NCBI RefSeq assembly: GCF_041886205.1
Contig: NZ_CP169029.1
Length of the DNA stretch: 64,000 nt
Source of the DNA: Escherichia coli
GTDB lineage: Bacteria; Pseudomonadota; Gammaproteobacteria; Enterobacterales; Enterobacteriaceae
Direction: 5' to 3' (one strand)
Below the pieces are notes generated by a model. The model had not been told where the DNA came from. It did not search any database and worked only from the letters and a program-made list of their open reading frames with translations. The translations under genes and the position numbers were made by a program. Each line of letters begins with the position of its first letter. The stretch's first letter is position 1. This document shows positions 192 through 16,331 of this stretch, piece by piece.

Positions 192-1715
192 TCACTCAAC
201 CACAACCTTCACCTTCGGTTTAGAAAGGATAATTTTGACCAGGTCGATGTATGTAACAGGTTTATAGAAATAATAACCCTGCTGAAATGTGATATTATTT
301 TGGTTCAGATAGTCAAGTTGTTCTTTCGTTTCGACACCTTCAGCGACGATACTGATCGAAAGTTTACGCGCCAGATCCAATACACAATCCAGAATTCGGG
401 TTGATTCTGGGTCTGCGTTTACGCGGCCAACGAAACTGTGATCAATTTTGATATAATCAATATGCAGGTCATGAAGATAAGAAAGCCCTGAGTAGCCAGT
501 ACCGAAATCATCCAGCGCGATGACAAAACCATTTTCATGCAGAATGTTCAACCGCTGAACCAGACTTTCATCAACATTCAATGGCTCACGCTCGGTGACT
601 TCCAGAACAAGGTTTAAATCGCGGCGGGTAAAACTGTCACGGAAATTTAAACACTCGTCGACAAACGTCGGCGAAATAATATGCGAAGCGCTAAAATTAA
701 TTCCAATATGAAAACCTTCCGGCAGTTTACTCGCGATAGCGTTCATCTGTCTGGCAACCTGATTCATCAGGCTTTGTGTAAGCGGAACGATTAATCCGGA
801 TTTTTCAGCAAGTGGAATAAATGCCGCGGGTGAAATATATCCACCGTGAGGTTGTTTCCAGCGGGCTAACACCTCAACTCCCCGCAATGTCCCTTCCCGA
901 CCATTTACCACAGGTTGGTAAAAAGGGACGATCTCCCCATTATTTATTGCCCGTCGCAGGATCTCTTCAGGCGTTGCGCTTTTATTGAAATACCTATCAA
1001 GCAGGAAAGCAGCGGCGCAGGCGATTAACAGAATAAATATCAAAATCCCAAAGCCTTTATCGATAAGTCTGTAGAAGCTAAAGAGTGGCGGCGGGTTAAA
1101 GATAATAGTGAAATGATATTTTGTGGAGTGAACCTTCTCGGTATAGGGATAATGTCCATTAAGTGTCATCACATCACCCGTAGGCCCAATAATGTCATCC
1201 GCCACGCGTAATACATACCTTACCCCTTTCAAGGGTACATTAAGCGCCCCACGAATATGCTGATCGCTTATCGTAACCAAAATGCGCGTATCTGCAAATT
1301 GGTTCTGATAGAGCAGGATAGGTAATCTATTAACGGTGTCGATTGCTGGAGCCAACAGTAAATTACTGTCCGGGACAACAGGAATACGAGACAACAGGAC
1401 CCGATTCCCAGGCAGGGATGTACACCAGACTATTCCCTGTTTGAGAATGATGATTGTGCGCAGGTGAGGTTTCAGAGCTGCTTCAGTGCCAAGCTGATAT
1501 TGCTCCTCGAGGTCGCATTCCTTCCCGGCAATGTTAACCGCTGTTTGAGTCGCCTGTGACGCTTCTTCAAGTATATGATTGATATTGTTGGCGGCATATC
1601 TCGCTCCCGACAGGTACTCTGCTTTTGCGGAATACCAGAGCTGGATGTTCAAAATAGCGACACCGGTTATAAATAAGCATATCGCAACGAGGATGGGTAT
1701 GAGTGTATTGCGCAT
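192..1715 (-). CDS. pdeG: CSS-motif EAL-domain c-di-GMP phosphodiesterase PdeG (YcgG); start taken at internal Met giving 507 aa
   Basis: 521-aa ORF on the track; N-terminal TM segment plus C-terminal EAL-like domain; synteny next to ymgC as in K-12. Confidence 0.8.
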   Translation of the reverse strand: MRNTLIPILVAICLFITGVAILNIQLWYSAKAEYLSGARYAANNINHILEEASQATQTAVNIAGKECDLEEQYQLGTEAALKPHLRTIIILKQGIVWCTSLPGNRVLLSRIPVVPDSNLLLAPAIDTVNRLPILLYQNQFADTRILVTISDQHIRGALNVPLKGVRYVLRVADDIIGPTGDVMTLNGHYPYTEKVHSTKYHFTIIFNPPPLFSFYRLIDKGFGILIFILLIACAAAFLLDRYFNKSATPEEILRRAINNGEIVPFYQPVVNGREGTLRGVEVLARWKQPHGGYISPAAFIPLAEKSGLIVPLTQSLMNQVARQMNAIASKLPEGFHIGINFSASHIISPTFVDECLNFRDSFTRRDLNLVLEVTEREPLNVDESLVQRLNILHENGFVIALDDFGTGYSGLSYLHDLHIDYIKIDHSFVGRVNADPESTRILDCVLDLARKLSISIVAEGVETKEQLDYLNQNNITFQQGYYFYKPVTYIDLVKIILSKPKVKVVVE

Positions 1716-1898
1716 TTGCTTGTCCCGGCCAAAGGGTTTAATACATGAAAATGCCATTCATTCGCTCGCGCTGGCATCTACAGAGAGCATGGTAGAGAGC
1801 ATAGGAAATATCCACGCCGAAGATAAAATTTTCTCCATCTTGATCTAACCCATTAATTATTGAGCATAATGTAGGCAGGATTAAATAAATTAGGTGGG

Positions 1899-1952
1899 AT
1901 ATCAGGCATCAAGAATGGAGAGCGAGAACTCTCCATTCTTGACACCTGATAT
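1899..1952. repeat. Long imperfect inverted repeat (about 25-bp arms; perfect 13-bp inner stem CAAGAATGGAGAG / CTCTCCATTCTTG around a 6-nt loop)
   Basis: Read directly from sequence; lies between ymgC stop and pdeG start. Confidence 0.7.
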
Positions 1953-2046
1953 TGCGGACATAATAAGAAAGCATAACGCCTGAAATGCTCACTTTGCATC
2001 AGCATGGTGATACAGCTGATGTTTATTCTAAAACCTTACTCAAGTT

Positions 2047-2295
2047 CTAAGAGAGCACGGATTCCCTGTCATTAATAATGATATCCGTTAGTGTAGTCTT
2101 ATGCATTTCAATGTACTGCAATATTTGCAGATAGAGATCAGAAAGAATCACACTGGTTTCATCTTTTAAACGCAAGCGTAAAGCCTGATCAATAATATGA
2201 CTATCAACATACCCATGCGTCATGAACACCTCCCTCTCGAGATTTTTAAACAAAGCACATTGAAAAATAAATCTCTCTGGGATTGAATTATTCAT
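2047..2295 (-). CDS. ymgC: YmgC, last gene of ycgZ-ymgA-ariR-ymgC operon
   Basis: 82-aa ORF; operon synteny. Confidence 0.75.
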   Translation of the reverse strand: MNNSIPERFIFQCALFKNLEREVFMTHGYVDSHIIDQALRLRLKDETSVILSDLYLQILQYIEMHKTTLTDIIINDRESVLS

Positions 2296-2407
2296 GTCAG
2301 CCTCGTAGAAATATTAACCCAATAAAATTATGCTGTGTATAGTCTAAAGCGACAGACAAAAATAAGATGAATGAGTTTTCTATAAACTTATACTTAATAA
2401 TTAGAAG

Positions 2408-2674
2408 TTACATATCATCAGCTGTGTATCGCAACACGATTTCCAGTGTTTTTCTAATCACATCAGCTTTGAGAATATCACTTGTTGTTTCCAGGGAGTG
2501 TATCAGACTTAAGATAATATTTTTATTATTAACATTATCGCCTGAAAGCATTAAATTGGTGACAGCCTGCCCTAACACAGCTGACTCTTCTTCTAACAAA
2601 TTACCCGAACTGCGAAAGTAACTTGCTAACGCTTTATCAGTTATTGCATTATGAATTGTAGTATCTTCAAGCAT
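2408..2674 (-). CDS. ariR: AriR (YmgB) biofilm/acid-resistance regulator
   Basis: 88-aa ORF; recognised sequence and synteny. Confidence 0.8.
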
Positions 2675-2702
2675 GGTAACCTCTCATCTTACTTATGAAA
2701 TT

Positions 2703-2975
2703 TTAATGTATTCTGTTTATTTTCTTACCATTGAACATACTTTTATTGTCAGCTGTCGCTGTTCTTCGGTTTAGCCCTCCTGAATCACTATTGCTAAAAT
2801 CACGAATTATGCTGTCGATTAAATCGCGTCGGAAAGCATCTTCCTCAGCCGATTTCATTACGAGTAATTGCTTAATAAGAGTCTGCAATGAAAAATTTAT
2901 CTTCATGCGCAGTATCTGGAGCACCGCCTGGCCAGTAATTTCATATTTTATACGTTCATTATCAGATGTCTTCAT
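2703..2975 (-). CDS. ymgA: YmgA, RcsB-connector family
   Basis: 90-aa ORF; synteny. Confidence 0.75.
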   Translation of the reverse strand: MKTSDNERIKYEITGQAVLQILRMKINFSLQTLIKQLLVMKSAEEDAFRRDLIDSIIRDFSNSDSGGLNRRTATADNKSMFNGKKINRIH

Positions 2976-3017
2976 AACGACTTCATAGCTAACCTGTTAA
3001 ATAATCAGGCTGTTGCA

Positions 3018-3248
3018 TTATTCAAAAAGCAACCCAATTAGTGCATTATAATGTTTCTGTTCCCCTGTCGCTTGTTCCAGTCGGCATAGAAGTTTGGCAC
3101 AAAGCGACTTTCGACTCAGATTACGTCCATCTTTCAAAATCTCAGTCACAATTTCCCCGAGAGTTTCCTGCTGAGTAGGCAAGTTAGCTTTTGCAAAGTA
3201 ACGAGTGATTGCTCCCGCAGAATCTAAAGTCACTGAATTTTGATGCAT
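3018..3248 (-). CDS. ycgZ: YcgZ, first gene of BluR-repressed operon
   Basis: 76-aa ORF beginning MHQNSVTLDSAGAITRYF; divergent from bluF. Confidence 0.8.
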   Translation of the reverse strand: MHQNSVTLDSAGAITRYFAKANLPTQQETLGEIVTEILKDGRNLSRKSLCAKLLCRLEQATGEQKHYNALIGLLFE

Positions 3249-3302
3249 GCTACGCCTCTGTTAAAAATGTTAATCAATGTTAAGTGAGGTAACAATAGCA
3301 AA

Positions 3303-3324
3303 CTTGTACGAAATATGTGTACAG
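3303..3324. promoter_or_regulatory. Candidate operator in ycgZ promoter region (TTGTAC-N9-GTACA partial palindrome)
   Basis: Seen in sequence about 55-75 bp upstream of ycgZ start; related to the TTGTACAA palindromes upstream of bluR. Confidence 0.3.
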
Positions 3325-3874
3325 AATGATAAATTAATTTTTTGCATTTAGTGCTAATACATACAAAACAACAAGTTATGATAAAAATTATTGCATCATT
3401 TAAATGACAACCTATACAAAAATTTTCGCCAACTCATCTTTAACTTTTTCCATTTTTTATCAATGTAAAGAAACAGTTATGTTTTGGTATTAAAAGAAAG
3501 ACACCGGAAGATATGTCTGTTACCGTCTTACTCTCACCTCTCCCATTACCCTGGACAGTTAATGCTTACCACCCTTATTTATCGTAGCCATATACGTGAC
3601 GACGAACCTGTCAAAAAAATCGAAGAAATGGTTTCGATAGCAAATCGCAGGAACATGCAGTGTGACGTAACAGGGATCTTACTGTTTAATGGTTCTCATT
3701 TTTTCCAGCTTCTGGAAGGTCCGGAAGAACAGGTTAAAATGATATATCGGGCTATATGTCAGGATCCACGGCACTATAATATTGTTGAACTGCTGTGCGA
3801 TTACGCGCCTGCTCGCCGTTTTGGCAAAGCGGGAATGGAATTATTTGATTTGCGCTTGCACGAGCGAGATGACG

Positions 3875-3883
3875 TTTTACAGG
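3875..3883. repeat. Left copy of 9-bp target-site duplication TTTTACAGG
   Basis: Identical 9-mer immediately flanks both IS ends. Confidence 0.9.
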
Positions 3884-4940
3884 GGCTTTGTTGAATAAAT
3901 CGAACTTTTGCTGAGTTGAAGGATCAGATCACGTATCTTCCCGACAACGCAGACCGTTCCGTGGCAAAGCAAAAGTTCAAAATCACCAACTGGCCCACCT
4001 ACAATAAAGCCCTCATCAACCGTGGCTCCATAACTTTCTGGCTGGATGATGAAGCTATTCAGGCCTGGTATGAGTCAGCAACACCTTCTTCACGAGGCAG
4101 ACCTCAGCGCTATTCTGACCTTGCCATCACGACTGTGCTGGTCATTAAACGCGTATTCAGGCTGACCCTGCGCGCTGCGCAGGGCTTTATTGATTCCATT
4201 TTTTCTCTGATGAACGTTCCGCTACGCTGCCCGGATTACAGCTGTGTCAGCAGGCGGGCAAAGTCGGTTAATGTCAGTTTCAAAACGCCCACCCGGGGTG
4301 AAATCGCACACCTGGTAATTGATTCCACCGGGCTGAAGGTCTTCGGTGAAGGCGAGTGGAAAGTCAAAAAGCATGGCCAGGAACGCCGCCGTATCTGGCG
4401 TAAGCTGCATCTCGCCGTTGACAGTAAAACACATGAAATCATCTGCGCTGACCTGTCGCTGAACAACGTTACGGACTCAGAGGCCTTCCCCGGGTTAATC
4501 CGGCAAACCCACCGGAAAATCAGGTCAGCCGCCGCCGATGGCGCTTACGATACCCGGCTATGTCACGATGAACTGCGGCGTAAGAAAATCAGCGCGCTTA
4601 TCCCTCCCCGAAAAGGTGCGGGTTACTGGCCCGGTGAATATGCAGACCGTAACCGTGCAGTGGCTAATCAGCGAATGACCGGGAGTAATGCGCGGTGGAA
4701 ATGGACAACAGATTACAACCGTCGCTCGATAGCGGAAACGGCGATGTACCGGGTAAAACAGCTGTTCGGGGGTTCACTGACGCTGCGTGACTACGATGGT
4801 CAGGTTGCAGAGGCTATGGCCCTGGTACGAGCGCTGAACAAAATGACGAAAGCAGGTATGCCTGAAAGCGTGCGTATTGCCTGAAAACACAACCCGCTAC
4901 GGGGGAGACTTACCCGAAATCTGATTTATTCAACAAAGCC
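3884..4940 (+). mobile_element. IS903-group insertion sequence (IS5 family), 1057 bp, 18-bp terminal inverted repeats GGCTTTGTTGAATAAATC
   Basis: Terminal IRs read at 3884-3901 and 4923-4940 (reverse complement); single transposase ORF; 9-bp TSD. Confidence 0.9.
3961..4884 (+). CDS. IS903-type DDE transposase (307 aa from GTG start; track ORF starts at upstream ATG 3916)
   Basis: Protein VAKQKFKITNWPTYNKALINRGS... recognised as IS903/IS102-like transposase. Confidence 0.85.
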   Translation: MAKQKFKITNWPTYNKALINRGSITFWLDDEAIQAWYESATPSSRGRPQRYSDLAITTVLVIKRVFRLTLRAAQGFIDSIFSLMNVPLRCPDYSCVSRRAKSVNVSFKTPTRGEIAHLVIDSTGLKVFGEGEWKVKKHGQERRRIWRKLHLAVDSKTHEIICADLSLNNVTDSEAFPGLIRQTHRKIRSAAADGAYDTRLCHDELRRKKISALIPPRKGAGYWPGEYADRNRAVANQRMTGSNARWKWTTDYNRRSIAETAMYRVKQLFGGSLTLRDYDGQVAEAMALVRALNKMTKAGMPESVRIA

Positions 4941-4949
4941 TTTTACAGG
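4941..4949. repeat. Right copy of 9-bp target-site duplication TTTTACAGG
   Basis: Seen in sequence. Confidence 0.9.
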
Positions 4950-5961
4950 CCGTATTCGACAAAGGCACATCAAAATTTCAGCTAACTTATGATGACAGAG
5001 CGCTACAATTTTTTCGTACTTTTGTCCTTGCAACCGAACAATCAACCTATTTCGAGATCCCTGCCGAAGATTCCTGGCTTTTTATCGCTGACGGATCTGA
5101 TAAAGAACTTGATTTCTATACCCTTTCACCAAATATAAACGACCGCTTTGCCTTTCATCCAATTGTCGATCCCTTATCGCGGCGGATAATCGCTTTTGAA
5201 GCCATTGTGCAAAAAAATGAAGATAGCCCATCAGCTATAGCGGTTGGGCAGCGTAAAGACGGGGAAATCTACAAAGCGGATCTCAAAAGTAAGGCGCTTG
5301 CATTCGCGATGGCACACGCACTTGAGCTCGGTGATAAAATGATTTCAATCAATCTATTACCTATGACCCTGGTTAACGAACCTGACGCAGTCTCTTTTTT
5401 ACTTAATGAAATAAAGGCCAATGCTCTGGTGCCTGAACAAATCATCGTTGAATTTACTGAAAGTGAAGTCATATCTCGGTTTGATGAGTTTGCCGAAGCG
5501 ATTAAATCGCTAAAGGCTGCTGGTATCAGTGTAGCAATTGATCATTTTGGCGCAGGTTTTGCTGGTTTGTTACTCCTGTCACGCTTCCAGCCTGACAGAA
5601 TTAAAATCAGTCAGGAATTGATTACCAATGTTCATAAAAGTGGGCCACGGCAGGCAATTATTCAGGCGATCATAAAATGCTGTACATCACTTGAAATTCA
5701 AGTCAGTGCTATGGGCGTGGCAACACCAGAAGAGTGGATGTGGCTTGAATCCGCAGGAATTGAGATGTTTCAGGGGGATCTGTTTGCTAAAGCTAAATTG
5801 AATGGTATCCCTTCCATAGCGTGGCCGGAGAAAAAATAATTTTCAGCACATTCTTTCACATGATTTCAGTAAATCATCGTGAAAATGAATACGTTATGTT
5901 TAAATTTAATCCACATTAAAAATAATGTTTCATCCAAATTAGCTGAAATCTTATTTATACT

Positions 5962-5989
5962 TTGTACAATTTTAGCGTATATTGTACAA
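5962..5989. promoter_or_regulatory. Two copies of the self-complementary octamer TTGTACAA spaced 20 bp start-to-start, upstream of bluR
   Basis: Read directly; 55-80 bp upstream of bluR start; position typical of an operator within a promoter. Confidence 0.35.
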
Positions 5990-6043
5990 AGTATTATTGG
6001 GTCGTGTACAGGCGACGGAGATTTATGACCGCAAGGAGGAATT

Positions 6044-6775
6044 GTGGCTTATTACAGCATTGGTGATGTTGCTGAACGTTGCGGGATTAATCCTGTCACT
6101 CTCCGGGCCTGGCAACGCCGCTACGGTTTGTTAAAACCACAGCGCAGTGAAGGCGGACACCGACTCTTTGATGAAGAAGACATACAACGTATCGAAGAGA
6201 TCAAGCGTTGGATAAGTAATGGCGTCCCTGTAGGCAAAGTTAAAGCATTACTGGAAACCACCAGCCAGGATACGGAAGATGACTGGAGCCGCCTGCAAGA
6301 AGAGATGATGTCAATTCTTCGTATGGCTAATCCTGCCAAACTACGCGCAAGAATTATTTCACTGGGTCGAGAGTACCCAGTAGATCAATTGATTAATCAT
6401 GTTTACCTTCCTGTTCGCCAGCGTCTCGTGCTTGATCACAACACCTCCCGCATTATGAGCAGTATGTTTGACGGCGCATTAATTGAATATGCAGCAGCCT
6501 CGCTTTTCGAAATGCGCCGTAAGCCCGGTAAAGAAGCCATTCTGATGGCGTGGAATGTTGAAGAGAGAGCACGATTGTGGCTGGAAGCATGGCGTTTATC
6601 ATTGTCAGGATGGCACATTTCTGTTCTTGCTGATCCCATTGAATCGCCGCGCCCGGAACTGTTCCCGACGCAAACATTGATTGTCTGGACAGGCATGGCA
6701 CCAACAAGAAGGCAAAACGAACTTTTACAACATTGGGGTGAGCAAGGTTATAAAGTCATCTTTCATGCCCCCTAA
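6044..6775 (+). CDS. bluR: MerR-family repressor BluR (YcgE)
   Basis: 243-aa ORF with N-terminal MerR HTH ([27 protein letters not shown]); synteny. Confidence 0.85.
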
Positions 6776-6994
6776 TTTCACCTTTATCCCGCCCCTTAGA
6801 CAGAATGTTATAATCTGAACCCACAACAGCGTTTGTACCGGAGCTGGTCCGTTGCAAAATGCTCACCGGACAATTCAGGTAATCCCCCTTTCACACTTTG
6901 TACATATCACAGCCAAAGGACAGACCAGATTGAAGTGGTAAAACCGATCGTGCACACTACGCAGTCTCACAACTAACAAGAGGTTATTATCCTG

Positions 6995-7399
6995 ATGGAT
7001 CAGGTCGTTGTTTTTCAAAAGATGTTTGAGCAAGTGAGAAAAGAGCAAAACTTCTCCTGGTTTTATTCAGAATTAAAACATCACCGTATTGCACATTACA
7101 TTTATTATCTGGCTACGGATAACATCAGAATTATTACTCACGATGACACGGTTTTGTTATTAAGAGGAACCAGAAACCTGTTAAAAGTTAGTACGACCAA
7201 GAACCCTGCTAAAATAAAAGAGGCCGCATTGCTTCATATTTGCGGAAAATCTACATTTCGGGAATACTGCTCAACACTGGCAGGCGCGGGCGTTTTCCGT
7301 TGGGTTACTGATGTTAATCATAACAAACGCAGTTACTACGCCATTGATAATACGCTTTTATATATTGAAGATGTAGAAAATAATAAACCATTAATCTAG
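6995..7399 (+). CDS. ycgX: YcgX (DUF1398 family) protein
   Basis: 134-aa ORF; synteny. Confidence 0.7.
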   Translation: MDQVVVFQKMFEQVRKEQNFSWFYSELKHHRIAHYIYYLATDNIRIITHDDTVLLLRGTRNLLKVSTTKNPAKIKEAALLHICGKSTFREYCSTLAGAGVFRWVTDVNHNKRSYYAIDNTLLYIEDVENNKPLI

Positions 7400-7605
7400 C
7401 TAAAGTTGGATGCTTAAGAAATGCTTCATAATTCAGTAAGGCATTAGCATAATGGGAATAAAAGTGCAGAGACCATTCCTATGGTTCTAATACTGCCTTT
7501 TTATTGCCGCCCATAGATGTTCAGTACACCAATACTATAAAATTGATATTGAAATGTACTCCCTTGCTTATTGATACATTATTTTATACGGTTAGTTTGC
7601 TTTTA

Positions 7606-7633
7606 AAAACAACGGGCGTGCTATACGCCTGTT
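7606..7633. repeat. Second copy (26/28 identical) of the icd terminator hairpin sequence
   Basis: AAAACAACGGGCGTGCTATACGCCTGTT versus AAAACAACGGGCGTGTTATACGCCCGTT at 8897-8924. Confidence 0.7.
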
Positions 7634-7778
7634 TCATGGCTTAACCCATATTAATTTTGCTTTATTTTTCATCGCGTTATAAGTTTTTAACCAGCAACGA
7701 GTTATCCTTTACTATAAAGTTCAATAGTTGAGACCTTACCCTCATGTCATGCGTATATTCATTATAATGCTCCTTAGA

Positions 7779-7805
7779 CAAAAAAAGCCAACCATGATGG
7801 TTGGC
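7779..7805 (-). terminator. Intrinsic-terminator-like hairpin (GCCAACCAT/ATGGTTGGC) followed by a U7 tract on the minus strand; no annotated minus-strand gene upstream
   Basis: Seen in sequence. Confidence 0.4.
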
Positions 7806-8024
7806 AAAGTGGCACAAAGTAGCATAAAGGCTATGCTTTAATTACAGAAGGTTCAGTCATTTAAATGTATATCGTTTTATCTAAACAGAACTAAAACGAA
7901 GTGAATGATTTCACTTTTCCACTAAATCTCATTTTGTTTAATCTCTGTTGAGATTCCTTGCTTTAAATTTTGTTTTATAAAACAGTAGCTTTATTTTTTA
8001 ATTGATTTTTAGGTAATATAAAAA

Positions 8025-8279
8025 ATGCAAAATCAAGAAATGAATATCCAAATTAAACTATACGCTTATTTAAATAAATATGACACTCGCCTTACAGAAG
8101 AAAAAATTGCGATTGATAAAGCTATTAGAGAATTACATTTTAGCAGCGAGCATGTTGATAACAAAAAAATAATACTGAAGTTACTTTCATTTTTATCATA
8201 TACAGATGATGTTGTTGAAAAAGACATTATCAGAAATACATTGGAAGTGGTTCTTCTTTTTACTTCCGATGATATTTAA
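8025..8279 (+). CDS. AriR/YmgB-family paralogue (84 aa)
   Basis: C-terminal half KIILKLLSFLSYTDDVVEKDIIRNTLEVVLLFTSDDI parallels Ari[39 protein letters not shown] in this same window. Confidence 0.6.
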   Translation: MQNQEMNIQIKLYAYLNKYDTRLTEEKIAIDKAIRELHFSSEHVDNKKIILKLLSFLSYTDDVVEKDIIRNTLEVVLLFTSDDI

Positions 8280-8522
8280 TTGGATTCACTAACTTTATTA
8301 TCAAAATTATTGTCCGAACACTACCTTTCTTACTTATGTTTAATAATAATCACTGCGAATGAGGGGCGCACAACTATATTTTTCTCACACCTGTGATGTA
8401 AAAACACGAGAAAATCCAAATAAAGAACAACATTTGCAATTCCCACCAGATGGATTGCATCACACTTTATTATTCAAAATATTTATCAGCATCATTAAAA
8501 GCCGAAGGATAAGACAAAACAA

Positions 8523-8846
8523 ATGAAGTGGATAGTAATTGACACGGTAATTCAACCTACATGTGGTATATCTTTTTCAGCCATATGGGGTGATATGAAA
8601 ATGATCATCTGGTATCAATCTACTATATTTCTCCCTCCTGGTAGTATATTTAAACCGGTTAAATCTGGTATTATCCTTAAAGATAAAGAATATCCTATTA
8701 CTATTTATAACATCGCACCATTCAACAAGGATTTATGGAGTCTACTCAAAAGCAATCAAGAGTGTCCTCCAGGAGAAAGCAAAATAACAAATAAATGTTT
8801 GCATAATAGTTGCATTATAAAAATATGCCCATATGGGCTCAAGTAA
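8523..8846 (+). CDS. iraM: IraM anti-adaptor protein (RpoS stabiliser)
   Basis: 107-aa [26 protein letters not shown]...; position next to icd. Confidence 0.8.
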
Positions 8847-8896
8847 AGGGTTTAATATAAATATGCTCGATATGCTATTAATAATACCTACATAAA

Positions 8897-8924
8897 TAAA
8901 ACAACGGGCGTGTTATACGCCCGT
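8897..8924 (-). terminator. icd intrinsic terminator (hairpin AACGGGCG...CGCCCGTT followed by a U-rich tract on minus strand)
   Basis: Seen in sequence 25 bp downstream of icd stop. Confidence 0.65.
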
Positions 8925-8948
8925 TGCAATATTAAACACATGTAGTGA

Positions 8949-10199
8949 TTACATGTTCTTGATGATCGCATCACCAAATTCTGAACATTTCAGCAGTTTA
9001 GCGCCTTCCATCAGACGTTCGAAGTCATAGGTTACGGTCTTGGCGTTGATTGCGCCTTCCATACCTTTAACAATCAGGTCTGCGGCTTCAATCCAGCCCA
9101 TGTGGCGCAGCATCATCTCAGCAGAGAGGATGATAGAGCCAGGGTTTACTTTGTCCTGACCGGCATATTTCGGCGCAGTACCGTGGGTGGCTTCAAACAG
9201 GGCGCATTCGTCACCGATGTTTGCGCCAGGGGCGATACCAATACCACCAACCTGCGCTGCCAGGGCGTCAGAAATGTAGTCACCGTTCAGGTTCATACAG
9301 GCGATAACATCATATTCAGCCGGACGCAGCAGGATCTGTTGCAGGAACGCATCAGCGATCACGTCTTTAATGACGATCTCTTTGCCGGTATTCGGGTTTT
9401 TAACTTTCAGCCACGGGCCGCCGTCGATCAGTTCTCCGCCAAACTCTTCACGCGCCAGCTGGTAGCCCCAGTCTTTAAACGCGCCTTCGGTGAACTTCAT
9501 GATGTTGCCTTTGTGCACCAGGGTCACAGAGTCACGATCGTTAGCAATTGCGTATTCGATCGCTGCACGAACCAGACGTTTGGTGCCTTCTTCCGAACAC
9601 GGCTTAATACCGATACCGCAATGTTCCGGGAAGCGAATTTTCTTCACGCCCATCTCTTCACGCAGGAATTTAATCACTTTCTCGGCGTCGGCAGAGTCAG
9701 CTTTCCATTCGATACCCGCATAAATGTCTTCCGAGTTTTCACGGAAGATAACCATATCGGTCAGTTCAGGGTGTTTAACCGGGCTTGGAGTGCCCTGATA
9801 GTAACGTACCGGACGCAGGCAGATGTAGAGATCCAGTTCCTGACGCAGGGCAACGTTGAGAGAACGAATACCGCCACCAACCGGAGTGGTCAGCGGGCCT
9901 TTAATGGCAACGCGATATTCACGAATCAGATCAAGGGTTTCAGCAGGCAGCCAGACATCCTGACCATAAACCTGTGTGGATTTTTCACCGGTGTAAATTT
10001 CCATCCAGGAGATTTTACGCTCGCCTTTATAGGCTTTCTCGACTGCAGCGTCGACCACTTTCAGCATGGCTGGGGTTACATCTACACCGATTCCATCACC
10101 TTCAATGTAAGGGATAATCGGATTTTCAGGAACGTTGAGTTTGCCGTTTTGCAGGGTGATCTTCTTGCCTTGTGCCGGAACAACTACTTTACTTTCCAT
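8949..10199 (-). CDS. icd: Isocitrate dehydrogenase (NADP), native C-terminus with no e14 junction
   Basis: 416-aa [41 protein letters not shown]... Confidence 0.97.
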
Positions 10200-10659
10200 T
10201 CACCTCTCCTTCGAGCGCTACTGGTTTGCTCGTCTGCCACCACGTTGCATATGCGTTTGCGTCCTGCGATACGGATGCTTTAGAGCAATTTTTGTTAATG
10301 ATTTGTAATTGGCTTGTCAATACTACCCTATTGTTTGCCGTCATGAAAGATGCGCGTTATTAGGCTATAATGCGGCAATTCATAATCTGTGAAAATACCA
10401 TGCAAAAAACTTCTTTTAGACCAAAGACAGTATTTTTCAGACCTTCAAATAAGGTATTAAATATCAATAATTTACACCAGATTTTAAGCAATAAAAAAAA
10501 CCACCAGAGATAACTAACAGGGTGCTATTTGGTCAAAATTTGACATTACTCGATTCAGCGACTAACTCACTTTGAGCACTATTGGGAAAATTATCAAAAG
10601 TCATGGTTGAAGCGACAAGCAACGAGTAAATTATGGCATCCACCCTTTTTGAGGTTCAC

Positions 10660-10752
10660 ATGAAACGCTTTGCACTGATAGCTGTGACACTCGTTGCCTT
10701 TACTGGTTCTAGTTCTGCATCTGCTGCAACCGAAGAAATCAACTTCAAGTAA
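10660..10752 (+). other. 30-codon mini-ORF encoding a signal-peptide-like sequence (MKRFALIAVTLVAFTGSSSASAATEEINFK), in frame with the downstream 149-aa ORF but separated by TAA and TGA stops
   Basis: GAGG 5 nt upstream of ATG; frame relationship counted from coordinates (10786-10660 = 126). Confidence 0.4.
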
Positions 10753-10785
10753 CAGAAACACTATATAACAATGAAGTGTTGAAAA

Positions 10786-11235
10786 ATGGATACTACCGAA
10801 GAACGCAATGGAACATATTTCTACAGAGGACACCCGAACCTGTCCAAAATAGAACTACTCAACGTCATATTCCTTGAAGAATTCTGTAAGGAATTGGGGA
10901 TTGATTCGGTATCAGGTGCAGCAATCTTATCTGGTCAACCTTGGCTGGGTACAAGAGCGAAGCCGCAAGGGGCAACCCTGGGAACAAGTGTTGTCTCAAA
11001 GTATGCGCGTATACTGATGAGAGATGCACGCATGCCTTTTGGTATTTCTGTTCATACACCAGTGGGGGTAAGGATGCAGAAATCTAATAAGCTTGCTGCA
11101 ATTATCGCTCGTTGGGTCCCGTGGATTGGTTGGGCTTCACTGTCGATGAGTCTTTACAGGGTTTCGACTCGTACCCAGGAAAAATACAATCTGATTGCCA
11201 AACCTCAAGACCGTATTAAGTGGACTTCCTTCTAA
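10786..11235 (+). CDS. Hypothetical protein (149 aa), hydrophobic C-terminal segment; possible remnant of a secreted protein or toxin
   Basis: Track ORF; no convincing RBS of its own; stop overlaps start of next ORF (TAATG). Confidence 0.45.
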   Translation: MDTTEERNGTYFYRGHPNLSKIELLNVIFLEEFCKELGIDSVSGAAILSGQPWLGTRAKPQGATLGTSVVSKYARILMRDARMPFGISVHTPVGVRMQKSNKLAAIIARWVPWIGWASLSMSLYRVSTRTQEKYNLIAKPQDRIKWTSF

Positions 11236-11570
11236 TGGCGACAACAATCACAGACGAAGTTTTAGCACTGTTCCGTGATGAGATTCCAGGTTATCAGGAT
11301 GACCACGGGAAGGAAATTCCGTTAGAACTGGACTCTGATTTGTTCGACTATCCACGAGATGATATAGAGGACGCTATACGGAAATACAAAGAGAGGTTTG
11401 GGATTAACCTGGATAATCTGGACTGGTCTTTGTACCTTCCGTGGGAGTCTGCACCATTGCTTCAACGATGGTTCAAGCTCAAGCGGGAAGAGGTAGAAAC
11501 AACACGTTTACCGTTAACTGTACGGATGTTTGCAGAATCAGCAGAAGCGGGAAAATGGCTGTATCAGTAG
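11235..11570 (+). CDS. Hypothetical small acidic protein (111 aa from ATG in TAATG overlap; track gives GTG start at 11220)
   Basis: Track ORF; translationally coupled to upstream ORF; hairpin and T-rich tract just downstream. Confidence 0.5.
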   Translation: MATTITDEVLALFRDEIPGYQDDHGKEIPLELDSDLFDYPRDDIEDAIRKYKERFGINLDNLDWSLYLPWESAPLLQRWFKLKREEVETTRLPLTVRMFAESAEAGKWLYQ

Positions 11571-11890
11571 AATAAAAAAGAAGGCTGCGATGCCCTTCTT
11601 ATTACTGCTGATGATGGTAGTGGTAAAGCATCATCCTGAACTTGAACAGTGAAGTGCTGTCACCCATCAGTAATACAGAAACACTATTTTTCATACCAGT
11701 ATTTATTCAATTCATCAATGTAAAATGTGTTCATTGGGCCATATTTATCACCATGCAGCCACACAACCGCTGCTCACTAACCCAGGTATTGATGAAACCG
11801 CGCTGAAGAGCCTGAACCCTGAACCTCTAATGAGTACCTTCAAAGTCCAATGCAATCCGACACTGTGCTACCCTCTGCGTATAGCTCTAT

Positions 11891-12541
11891 TTGGAATTTA
11901 CTATGAAATACTTTAGCGATTCTAAATCTTCTTTTAGAAAAAAACAGGTTAGTCGACTAAACTCGCAACACTCCACTAAGCGTAAACCTGAAAACCAGCC
12001 CACGCGGGTGATCCTGTTCAATAAACCCTACGATGTTCTTCCGCAGTTCACCGATGAAGCCGGACGCAAAACATTAAAAGAATTCATCCCGGTTCAGGGC
12101 GTTTATGCAGCAGGTCGTCTTGACCGCGATAGCGAAGGGTTACTGGTGCTGACCAATAACGGCGCGTTGCAGGCGCGTTTAACCCAGCCGGGTAAACGCA
12201 CCGGAAAAATCTATTATGTGCAGGTGGAAGGTATTCCCACACAAGACGCACTTGAAGCCTTGCGCAATGGCGTAACCTTAAATGATGGCCCTACCCTGCC
12301 CGCAGGCGCGGAGCTGGTTGACGAACCCGCGTGGTTATGGCCGCGGAATCCACCAATTCGTGAACGCAAAAGTATTCCCACCAGCTGGCTAAAGATCACC
12401 TTATATGAAGGACGTAATCGCCAGGTGCGCCGCATGACCGCCCATGTTGGTTTCCCCACGCTGCGACTGATTCGCTATGCGATGGGTGATTACTCTTTGG
12501 ATAATCTTGCCAATGGCGAATGGCGAGAAGCGACAGATTAA
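11891..12541 (+). CDS. rluE: 23S rRNA pseudouridine synthase RluE
   Basis: 216-aa ORF; exact start uncertain (alternative ATG at 11903). Confidence 0.9.
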
Positions 12542-12550
12542 GGATGCAAA

Positions 12551-14172
<1,622 letters not shown>

Positions 14173-14207
14173 TTATTATCTTTACTTAAAACAAGGAAGC
14201 AGTGAAC

Positions 14208-14849
14208 GTGGCAAAGAATTACTATGACATCACCCTCGCCCTGGCCGGTATTTGTCAGTCGGCACGCCTGGTGCAACAACTCGCTCACCAGGGGCATTGT
14301 GATGCCGATGCGCTACACGTCTCACTTAACAGTATTATTGATATGAACCCCAGCTCGACGCTGGCGGTTTTTGGCGGTAGTGAAGCCAACCTGCGCGTCG
14401 GGCTGGAAACCTTGCTCGGCGTGCTCAATGCCAGCAGTCGCCAGGGCTTAAACGCCGAATTAACCCGCTACACACTCAGTCTGATGGTGCTTGAGCGCAA
14501 ACTCTCCTCAGCGAAAGGTGCGCTCGACACTCTGGGCAACCGGATCAACGGCCTGCAACGCCAGCTCGAACACTTCGATTTACAGTCCGAAACGCTGATG
14601 AGCGCGATGGCTGCTATCTATGTTGATGTGATTAGCCCGCTTGGCCCGCGCATTCAGGTCACCGGTTCCCCTGCTGTACTGCAAAGCCCACAAGTGCAGG
14701 CGAAAGTTCGCGCAACCCTGCTGGCAGGCATTCGCGCCGCCGTGCTCTGGCACCAGGTCGGCGGCGGACGTCTGCAACTGATGTTTTCTCGTAATCGCCT
14801 GACCACTCAGGCAAAACAAATTCTTGCTCATTTAACCCCGGAGTTGTGA
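14208..14849 (+). CDS. hflD: HflD lysogenisation regulator
   Basis: ORF; synteny; probable GTG start. Confidence 0.85.
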
Positions 14850-16313: not shown

Positions 16314-16331
16314 TGGTTTATTTAATGTTTA
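16314..16331 (+). promoter_or_regulatory. PhoP box direct repeat (TGGTTTA-TTTAA-TGTTTA) in phoPQ promoter
   Basis: Matches (T/G)GTTTA-N5-(T/G)GTTTA consensus; about 60 bp upstream of phoP. Confidence 0.7.

Follow-up and report, generated by a model that had tools for sequence, protein, structure and literature searches.

A divergent ariR-like gene ahead of iraM in Escherichia coli and a predicted PhoP-activated two-gene module

Positions 8025-8279 of the window (the whole 64,000-nucleotide stretch of Escherichia coli DNA analysed here) are genuinely coding, and their product is a small relative of AriR. With a little more confidence than doubt, we read the gene as heading an ariR-like/iraM operon activated by PhoP; its product would be a second, AriR-like connector. 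The genes of the region run in the order pdeG, ymgC, ariR, ymgA, ycgZ, bluF, bluR, ycgX, the ariR-like ORF, iraM and icd (Table 1). The e14 prophage is absent from icd in the window, and positions 334-14522 match the 6EVA strain's chromosome at 99.9-100% identity, one IS insertion aside. RefSeq (PGAP) labels the ORF 'biofilm development regulator YmgB/AriR family protein', and a literature search found no paper on the gene. Because the family is known and an automatic name already exists, the finding is incremental, and its added value is evolutionary and regulatory.

Table 1. Features at and around the ariR-like/iraM locus. Positions are those of the window unless a K-12 accession is given.
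Feature	Position	Strand	Remarks
ariR (resident)	2408-2674	minus	~5 kb from the ariR-like ORF
bluR	6044-6775
ycgX	6995-7399
Left copy of 44-nt direct repeat	7606-7649		Degenerate duplicate of the icd terminator hairpin (7610-7633); left edge of the module
ymgK homologue	7794-7841	+	MMVGKVAQSSIKAML, then stop; K-12 YmgK is MFSKLAQSSIKAMF; overlaps hairpin 7787-7805
Candidate second PhoP box	7882-7898	minus	CGTTTT-AGTTC-TGTTTA; unique in the 64-kb window
PhoP box (pattern match)	7935-7951	+	TGTTTA-atctc-TGTTGA (TGTTTAatctcTGTTGA); 74 nt upstream of the ariR-like ORF
Candidate -10 element	7964-7969	+	TAAATT; 12 nt after the PhoP box; invariant in 7/7 aligned haplotype sequences
ariR-like ORF	8025-8279	+	ATG start, 84 aa, TAA stop; RefSeq WP_047634476.1; assigned to a divergent, E. 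coli-restricted YmgB/AriR subfamily
Segment missing from K-12-type genomes	~8063-8494		~432 bp (+/- 2); codons ~14-84 and most of the pre-iraM spacer
Spacer between the ariR-like ORF and iraM	8280-8522	+	243 nt
iraM	8523-8846	+	RssB anti-adaptor, 107 aa, 96% identical to K-12 IraM
Right copy of 44-nt direct repeat	8898-8941		Functional icd terminator hairpin 8901-8927, minus strand, then a T run
icd	8949-10199	minus	Downstream of iraM
Second PhoP-pattern match, phoP promoter	16315-16331		GGTTTAtttaaTGTTTA; ~60 nt upstream of the phoP start codon
K-12 leader ORF	MG1655 NC_000913.3 ~1,212,000-1,212,068	minus	Positions 1501-1569 of locus L003; corresponds to window 8025-8062 plus 8495-8525

A long-branch member of the YmgB/AriR family

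The earlier note had described an 84-aa ORF between ycgX and iraM, preceded by an AT-rich region with several hairpins. Its coordinates and neighbours proved exact, and the 625-bp spacer that separates the ORF from ycgX is 31-34% GC and contains two hairpins (7610-7633 and 7787-7805). DNA around the ORF has a GC content of 26-34%, at which stop codons are frequent; a stop-free frame of 84 codons would arise at that composition with a chance probability of ~1e-3. The Shine-Dalgarno sequence is weak, consisting of an AGG 13 nt before the ATG.

Profile, sequence and structure searches all led to the same family. The sole significant Pfam-A match of the ORF is PF10798 YmgB/AriR (E 1.8e-15, score 57.0), which aligns residues 26-83 with positions 2-59 of a 59-position model. 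BLASTP against the resident AriR gave 40% identity over 73 aa (E 5e-18). The earlier note had likened only the C-terminal half of the protein to AriR; that similarity is genuine, but it extends further, spanning residues ~12-84. A sequence search of the PDB returned a single match, the YmgB crystal structure 2OXL (E 1.4e-11). We then turned to the predicted fold of this unsolved structure. An AlphaFold2 model built from a 33-sequence family alignment (mean pLDDT 86.8) has four predicted helices at residues 2-18, 24-39, 46-59 and 63-78, and contains the three-helix core of 2OXL. Foldseek comparison of the model with the PDB gave chain 2OXL_A as the sole significant match, with an rmsd of 1.2 A over 60 columns, a TM-score of 0.92 normalised to the target and 43% identity. 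Across the 33-sequence alignment, the protein keeps all four invariant and all ten near-invariant columns (E26, N46, K47, I50, L53, L57, D62, D67, R70, L73, E74, T80, D82 and D83). Membership of the AriR/YmgB family, which the earlier note had left to a BLASTP or HMM search, is thus upheld by the Pfam model, the PDB search, the predicted fold and the invariant residues.

K-12 AriR/YmgB (b1166; 2OXL; PF10798) belongs to the same family, has the same fold as that predicted here and is of similar length (88 aa against 84 aa). The two proteins share the signatures NK-IIL, D-IR-TLE-V and a C-terminal T-DD, including the arginine used for SpoT binding: R70 aligns with R74 of AriR, a residue on which SpoT binding depends and whose mutation abolishes that binding (PMC10704370). 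Helices 2-4, which bear the SpoT-binding residues of AriR, are the most conserved part of the ariR-like protein. Its N-terminal third departs from the family consensus, and the Gly of the 'AG-D' motif is missing. YcgZ and YmgA, whose genes share an operon with ariR 5 kb from the ORF, are likewise small helical proteins of the same superfamily but are much more distant. They align only weakly with the ariR-like protein (18-20% identity), and no NCBIfam model matches the ORF, the YcgZ model included.

The protein also stands apart within its family. Its nearest non-self proteins are AriR-like ones at 35-48% identity, with no cluster representative above 48%, whereas AriR itself has neighbours at 55-63%. 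An exhaustive HMMER search across 1.84 billion cluster representatives turned up zero relatives between 50% and 90% identity. The 40% identity to AriR, the long branch and the empty 50-90% range together rule out a recent duplicate of the resident ariR. The ORF does not behave as an AriR orthologue either: it shares only that 40% identity and is sited between ycgX and iraM, with the true ariR a separate gene. The protein is a divergent, long-branch, E. coli-restricted subfamily of YmgB/AriR. The earlier note had presented it as an extra paralogue; RefSeq already names it as a YmgB/AriR family protein.

Genomic context further distinguishes the two genes. Unlike ariR, which sits in the ycgZ-ymgABC operon under the control of BluR, RpoS and MarA, the ariR-like ORF is solitary before iraM and behind a PhoP box. 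Within the window, bluF (roughly 3560-5839) is split, relative to strain 6EVA, by a 1,057-bp insertion at 3884-4940 that is flanked by a 9-bp target duplication and encodes a transposase (ORF 3916-4884). The length of the insertion and of its target duplication would suit an IS903-like member of the IS5 family. This strain probably lacks an active BluF, the blue-light antirepressor, and the ycgZ-ymgA-ariR-ymgC operon should therefore be more tightly repressed by BluR.

Two alleles, a widespread deletion and the origin of the module

The interior of the ORF is found in 29 of 5,426 complete E. coli genomes (0.5%), in contrast to ariR, which is present in most. Ten of these genomes carry the window-type allele at 96-100% DNA identity; the other 19 carry a second allele with ~81% DNA and 74% protein identity to the window type. 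Every copy examined lies between ycgX and iraM. In the second-allele strains L004, L013 and L014, iraM is followed by trkG, not icd. The IraM partners of the two alleles are only 72% identical to each other, and both alleles keep all family-invariant residues. Between the alleles, dS is ~0.86, a value comparable to E. coli-Salmonella divergence, and dN is ~0.12-0.14. The resulting dN/dS of ~0.14 across this distance points to long-term purifying selection. The earlier note had counted a lack of conservation as grounds for dismissing the gene; in its few carrier genomes, the gene is conserved under such selection.

Searches beyond the species returned little. A word-indexed search of 5.8 billion proteins yielded entries from E. 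coli alone, and a scan of genome contigs with the IraM alignment yielded only E. albertii and a very short contaminant contig assigned to Oceanospirillum. In E. albertii the iraM-like gene is part of prophage DNA and has no AriR-like ORF upstream. The Oceanospirillum linum contig (NZ_MTSD02000045.1), 558 bp long and of low coverage, encodes the first 47 residues of IraM at 96% identity to E. coli and is almost certainly E. coli contamination of the Oceanospirillum assembly.

K-12 lacks the gene. The annotation of MG1655 between ycgX and iraM holds only ymgL and ymgK, whose products have been detected as small proteins (VanOrsdel et al. 2018; PMC6001520), and a deletion of ~432 bp occupies the site of the ORF, in agreement with the earlier note, which had placed no named K-12 gene here. 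Alignment reveals that K-12 retains the upstream region, the ATG and the first ~13 codons, and that its sequence resumes ~28 nt before the iraM ATG. The deletion junction is clearest in strain AMSCJX03, in which AACTATA is joined to TTAAATACCG. We found the junction allele at >=80% coverage in 3,884 of 5,426 genomes (~72%), the K-12 type included, and because they share this allele, the deletion looks like a single old event that is now dominant in the species.

This event would have removed the gene except for its first ~13 codons, which it joined to the leader of iraM. What is left in K-12 is an open frame of 22 codons that reads MQNQEINILMNHIKYRGIRHNK; its TGA stop and the iraM start codon overlap as ATGA. 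AMSCJX03, another deletion-type strain, has an equivalent leader ORF, MQNKEMNIQMNYIKYRGIRHNK. The 22-codon frame is unannotated in NC_000913.3, and a literature search for the K-12 remnant peptide found nothing. By its alignment with the window, the frame is a fossil of the ariR-like gene, and it may couple iraM translation to its own translation.

The surrounding spacer is itself highly variable. At least three deep haplotypes exist at the locus, plus one without iraM. Across ~7470-8500, the window is 75-87% identical to K-12-type strains, compared with 94-100% in the flanking ycgX, iraM and icd. The ymgK block is conserved in all haplotypes and ranks among the best-conserved parts of the spacer, and hairpin 7787-7805 is GC-rich. 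ymgL (window 7452-7490) is broken, reading MGIKVQRPFLWF and then a stop after a 2-nt indel, versus 36 aa in K-12.

Copies of a 44-nt direct repeat bracket ymgK, the ariR-like gene and iraM. They are 80% identical at a spacing of 1292, and their 31-nt core scores 47, whereas 200 shuffles reached no more than 30. In strain AST216, which is without iraM, the place of the left copy, directly behind ymgL, is taken by an icd 3' pseudogene fragment (3262-3429 of locus L015). The arrangement resembles the duplications that are left by elements such as e14 on integration into the 3' end of icd. Among the neighbouring proteins, the IraM of the window matches phrog_4407 (E 1.2e-50) and YcgX matches phrog_413. 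Taking the icd repeats, the AST216 fragment, these phrog matches and the E. albertii prophage gene together, we regard the ymgK/ariR-like/iraM module as probably the remaining cargo of an old element that had integrated at the icd 3' end, a view that we hold loosely. A phage (moron) origin of the ariR-like ORF itself is unsupported, since tblastn of the ORF against 50,697 phage records gave no match and its PHROG match is marginal (E 0.0068).

Two observations concern the DNA on either side of icd. A sub-threshold Rfam match to tpke11 at 8874-8944 on the minus strand (E 0.005; 26.4 bits, where the gathering score is 43) probably reflects the icd terminator hairpin only. At 10786-11570, between icd and rluE, lie overlapping genes of the STM2901 family (149 aa) and DUF1493 (116 aa; 111 in 6EVA). 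The pair is absent from the K-12-like locus L002, in which icd is followed directly by rluE.

These data bear on the idea, which we consider unlikely, that the ORF is a decaying relic, once functional on a mobile element that had inserted at icd and now (nearly) neutral and inconsequential. The scarcity of carriers and the prevalence of the deletion allele fit such a relic, as do the weak Shine-Dalgarno sequence and the location in an AT-rich island of the kind that is usually silenced by H-NS. Truncated versions of the protein also occur in the protein database (P0017-P0022). Differences within each allele are mostly non-synonymous (omega 0.5-1, from very small counts), and one of the ten window-type copies, in strain wlxctx60, is frameshifted, so some present-day copies may be decaying. 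The relic reading is nonetheless difficult to reconcile with the purifying selection recorded between the alleles, with family-invariant residues that are intact in both, with a conserved upstream promoter block and with intact frames in the other nine window-type copies and in all three second-allele copies examined (L004, L013 and L014). A functional operon, the reading that we prefer, has to accommodate the loss of the gene from >99% of E. coli, which leaves few strains that keep it.

A candidate PhoP-activated promoter shared with iraM

The pattern KGTTKA-N5-KGTTKA, a relaxed form of the PhoP box (T/G)GTTTA-N5-(T/G)GTTTA, has two matches in the 64 kb of the window, compared with 0.17 expected. 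One lies upstream of the ariR-like ORF; the other is directly upstream of the autoregulated phoP and therefore serves as a positive control. phoPQ is only ~8 kb from the iraM module. The distance of 12 nt between the box and the candidate -10 is the usual architecture of PhoP-activated promoters, and positions 7935-7969 show the arrangement that marks the PhoP regulon in sequence, a box that precedes a -10 by roughly one helical turn. Transcription is predicted to start near 7976, giving a leader of ~48 nt. The first half-site of the box is conserved in all haplotypes, and the second is degenerate (CATTGA) in K-12. A further box in reverse orientation, which may also have PhoP-box function, is conserved in window-type and K-12-type haplotypes and in the type of the second-allele strain EC42405. 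In an alignment of seven haplotype sequences, both boxes and the -10 fall within the best-conserved blocks of the divergent spacer. An Rfam search of the AT-rich upstream region found no known RNA above threshold.

Comparison with K-12 supports the placement of this promoter. Ahead of K-12 iraM, the box region is the only upstream sequence in common with the full-length haplotypes. iraM (ycgW) is strongly PhoP-dependent in E. coli and Shigella (PMC5740661; PMC5775216; PMC10948607). Since iraM responds to PhoP in K-12 without nearly all of the spacer, the PhoP-responsive element must lie upstream of the deletion, where the box lies. We infer that K-12 iraM uses the promoter that once belonged to the deleted ariR-like gene. 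Bougdour et al. reportedly mapped the K-12 iraM promoter in 2008; a full-text literature search returned nothing locating the mapped promoter or start site.

Between the two genes, a terminator scan identified no plus-strand terminator-like site in 8280-8522, and the RNA fold of this spacer is unremarkable (z-score -0.16). The conserved PhoP box and -10, together with the lack of a terminator before iraM, lend support to the earlier note's suggestion that the ORF could be a second connector-type regulator alongside IraM, with which it would be co-transcribed.

We weighed this arrangement against one in which the ORF is expressed neither from the PhoP-box promoter nor with iraM, the iraM promoter lies within the 243-nt spacer and the motifs are fortuitous or serve the ORF only. 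Sigma-70-like hexamer pairs are no commoner than chance in the AT-rich region, and promoters are therefore not locatable from sequence alone. Partly conserved blocks in the spacer, such as AAATAAAGAACAA, and the degenerate second half-site of K-12 are likewise compatible with separate promoters. However, K-12 iraM is strongly PhoP-dependent with only ~28 nt of spacer left before its ATG, and the interval to iraM is free of terminators. We consider separate promoters very unlikely.

Predicted connector activity and its meaning

In the favoured operon, the ariR-like gene would be promoter-proximal and iraM second, within an AT-rich island between two copies of the icd terminator. Transcription from the putative PhoP-activated promoter (box 7935-7951, -10 7964-7969) would respond to low Mg2+, acid or antimicrobial peptides via PhoQ, so that both proteins would be induced together. 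IraM sequesters RssB and thereby stabilises RpoS. By analogy with AriR, the other product, predicted to be a small four-helix protein and probably dimeric, would act as a connector that binds the cytoplasmic histidine-kinase domain of RcsC and switches on the Rcs phosphorelay. Instead of or besides this, it may bind the regulatory region of SpoT and raise ppGpp.

This proposal draws on work with AriR. YmgB contacts the RcsC histidine-kinase domain (PMC6900184), and to activate the Rcs phosphorelay it needs neither RcsF nor the periplasmic domain of RcsC (PMC11709261). Independently of this activity, AriR binds the TGS/helical domains of SpoT, raising ppGpp, and helix 3 and R74 are critical (PMC10704370). 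YmgB dimerises, and YmgB, YmgA and YcgZ interact mutually (PMC6900184; PMC10704370). With helices 2-4 and the arginine conserved, a small connector acting on RcsC and/or SpoT when PhoQ/PhoP is active is the most likely function of the ariR-like protein. Its predicted logic, in which a small protein under one sensor system modulates another pathway, resembles that of the connectors SafA, PmrD and MgrB. It has no sequence relationship to these proteins; connector activity is extrapolated from AriR.

At only 40-48% identity to any AriR-like protein, and with a different N-terminal third, the product of the ORF may not share the partners of AriR. No ycgZ- or ymgA-type genes accompany the ORF, though AriR works with YcgZ and YmgA. 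A functional protein that does not copy AriR's targets could form heteromers with the resident AriR/YmgA/YcgZ complex and tune or block it. Alternatively, its target could lie within the PhoQ/PhoP-IraM-RssB axis itself, with RssB and PhoQ as examples. The mutual interactions within the family, all three members of which are encoded in the window, are in keeping with such a role. So are the N-terminal helix, unlike that of AriR, and the tight linkage to iraM across two deep alleles, which, given the divergence of their IraM partners, is compatible with co-evolution. Set against this, conservation is highest in precisely the helices that carry the SpoT-binding residues of AriR, and we think targets other than those of AriR quite unlikely.

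A further reading, which we entertain only tentatively, is that the module was an ancestral PhoQ/PhoP two-connector operon, that its first connector was deleted in most E. coli, and that the 22-codon fossil of this connector in K-12 now controls iraM translation by coupling. The AriR-like protein would then relay the PhoQ signal to Rcs and/or SpoT/ppGpp, or join IraM on RssB. If the two-connector reading is true, carrier strains have a PhoP-to-Rcs or PhoP-to-ppGpp link that is absent from K-12.

IraM is the textbook link from PhoQ/PhoP, responding to low Mg2+, acid and osmotic upshift, to RpoS stability, and to our knowledge this link has been studied only in K-12. The K-12 pathway (PhoQ/PhoP to IraM to RssB to RpoS) shares with the window its locus, an upstream block with the PhoP box and -10, and an IraM of 96% identity. 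It differs in that the K-12 promoter is followed by the 22-codon remnant, whereas the window has an 84-codon gene and a 243-nt spacer. The iraL, iraM and rssC loci are evolutionarily labile (PMC4045071). The ariR-like/iraM locus, labile like those of the IraM variants IraL and RssC, adds a case to this known lability of anti-adaptor loci. Together, our observations suggest that a deletion gave rise to the control region of K-12 iraM, seemingly the fossil of a two-gene module preceded by a PhoP box, and that its promoter once also served an AriR-type connector gene. The 22-codon leader ORF may affect iraM translation in K-12, and natural strains with the full module may wire PhoQ/PhoP to a further pathway, either Rcs or the stringent response.
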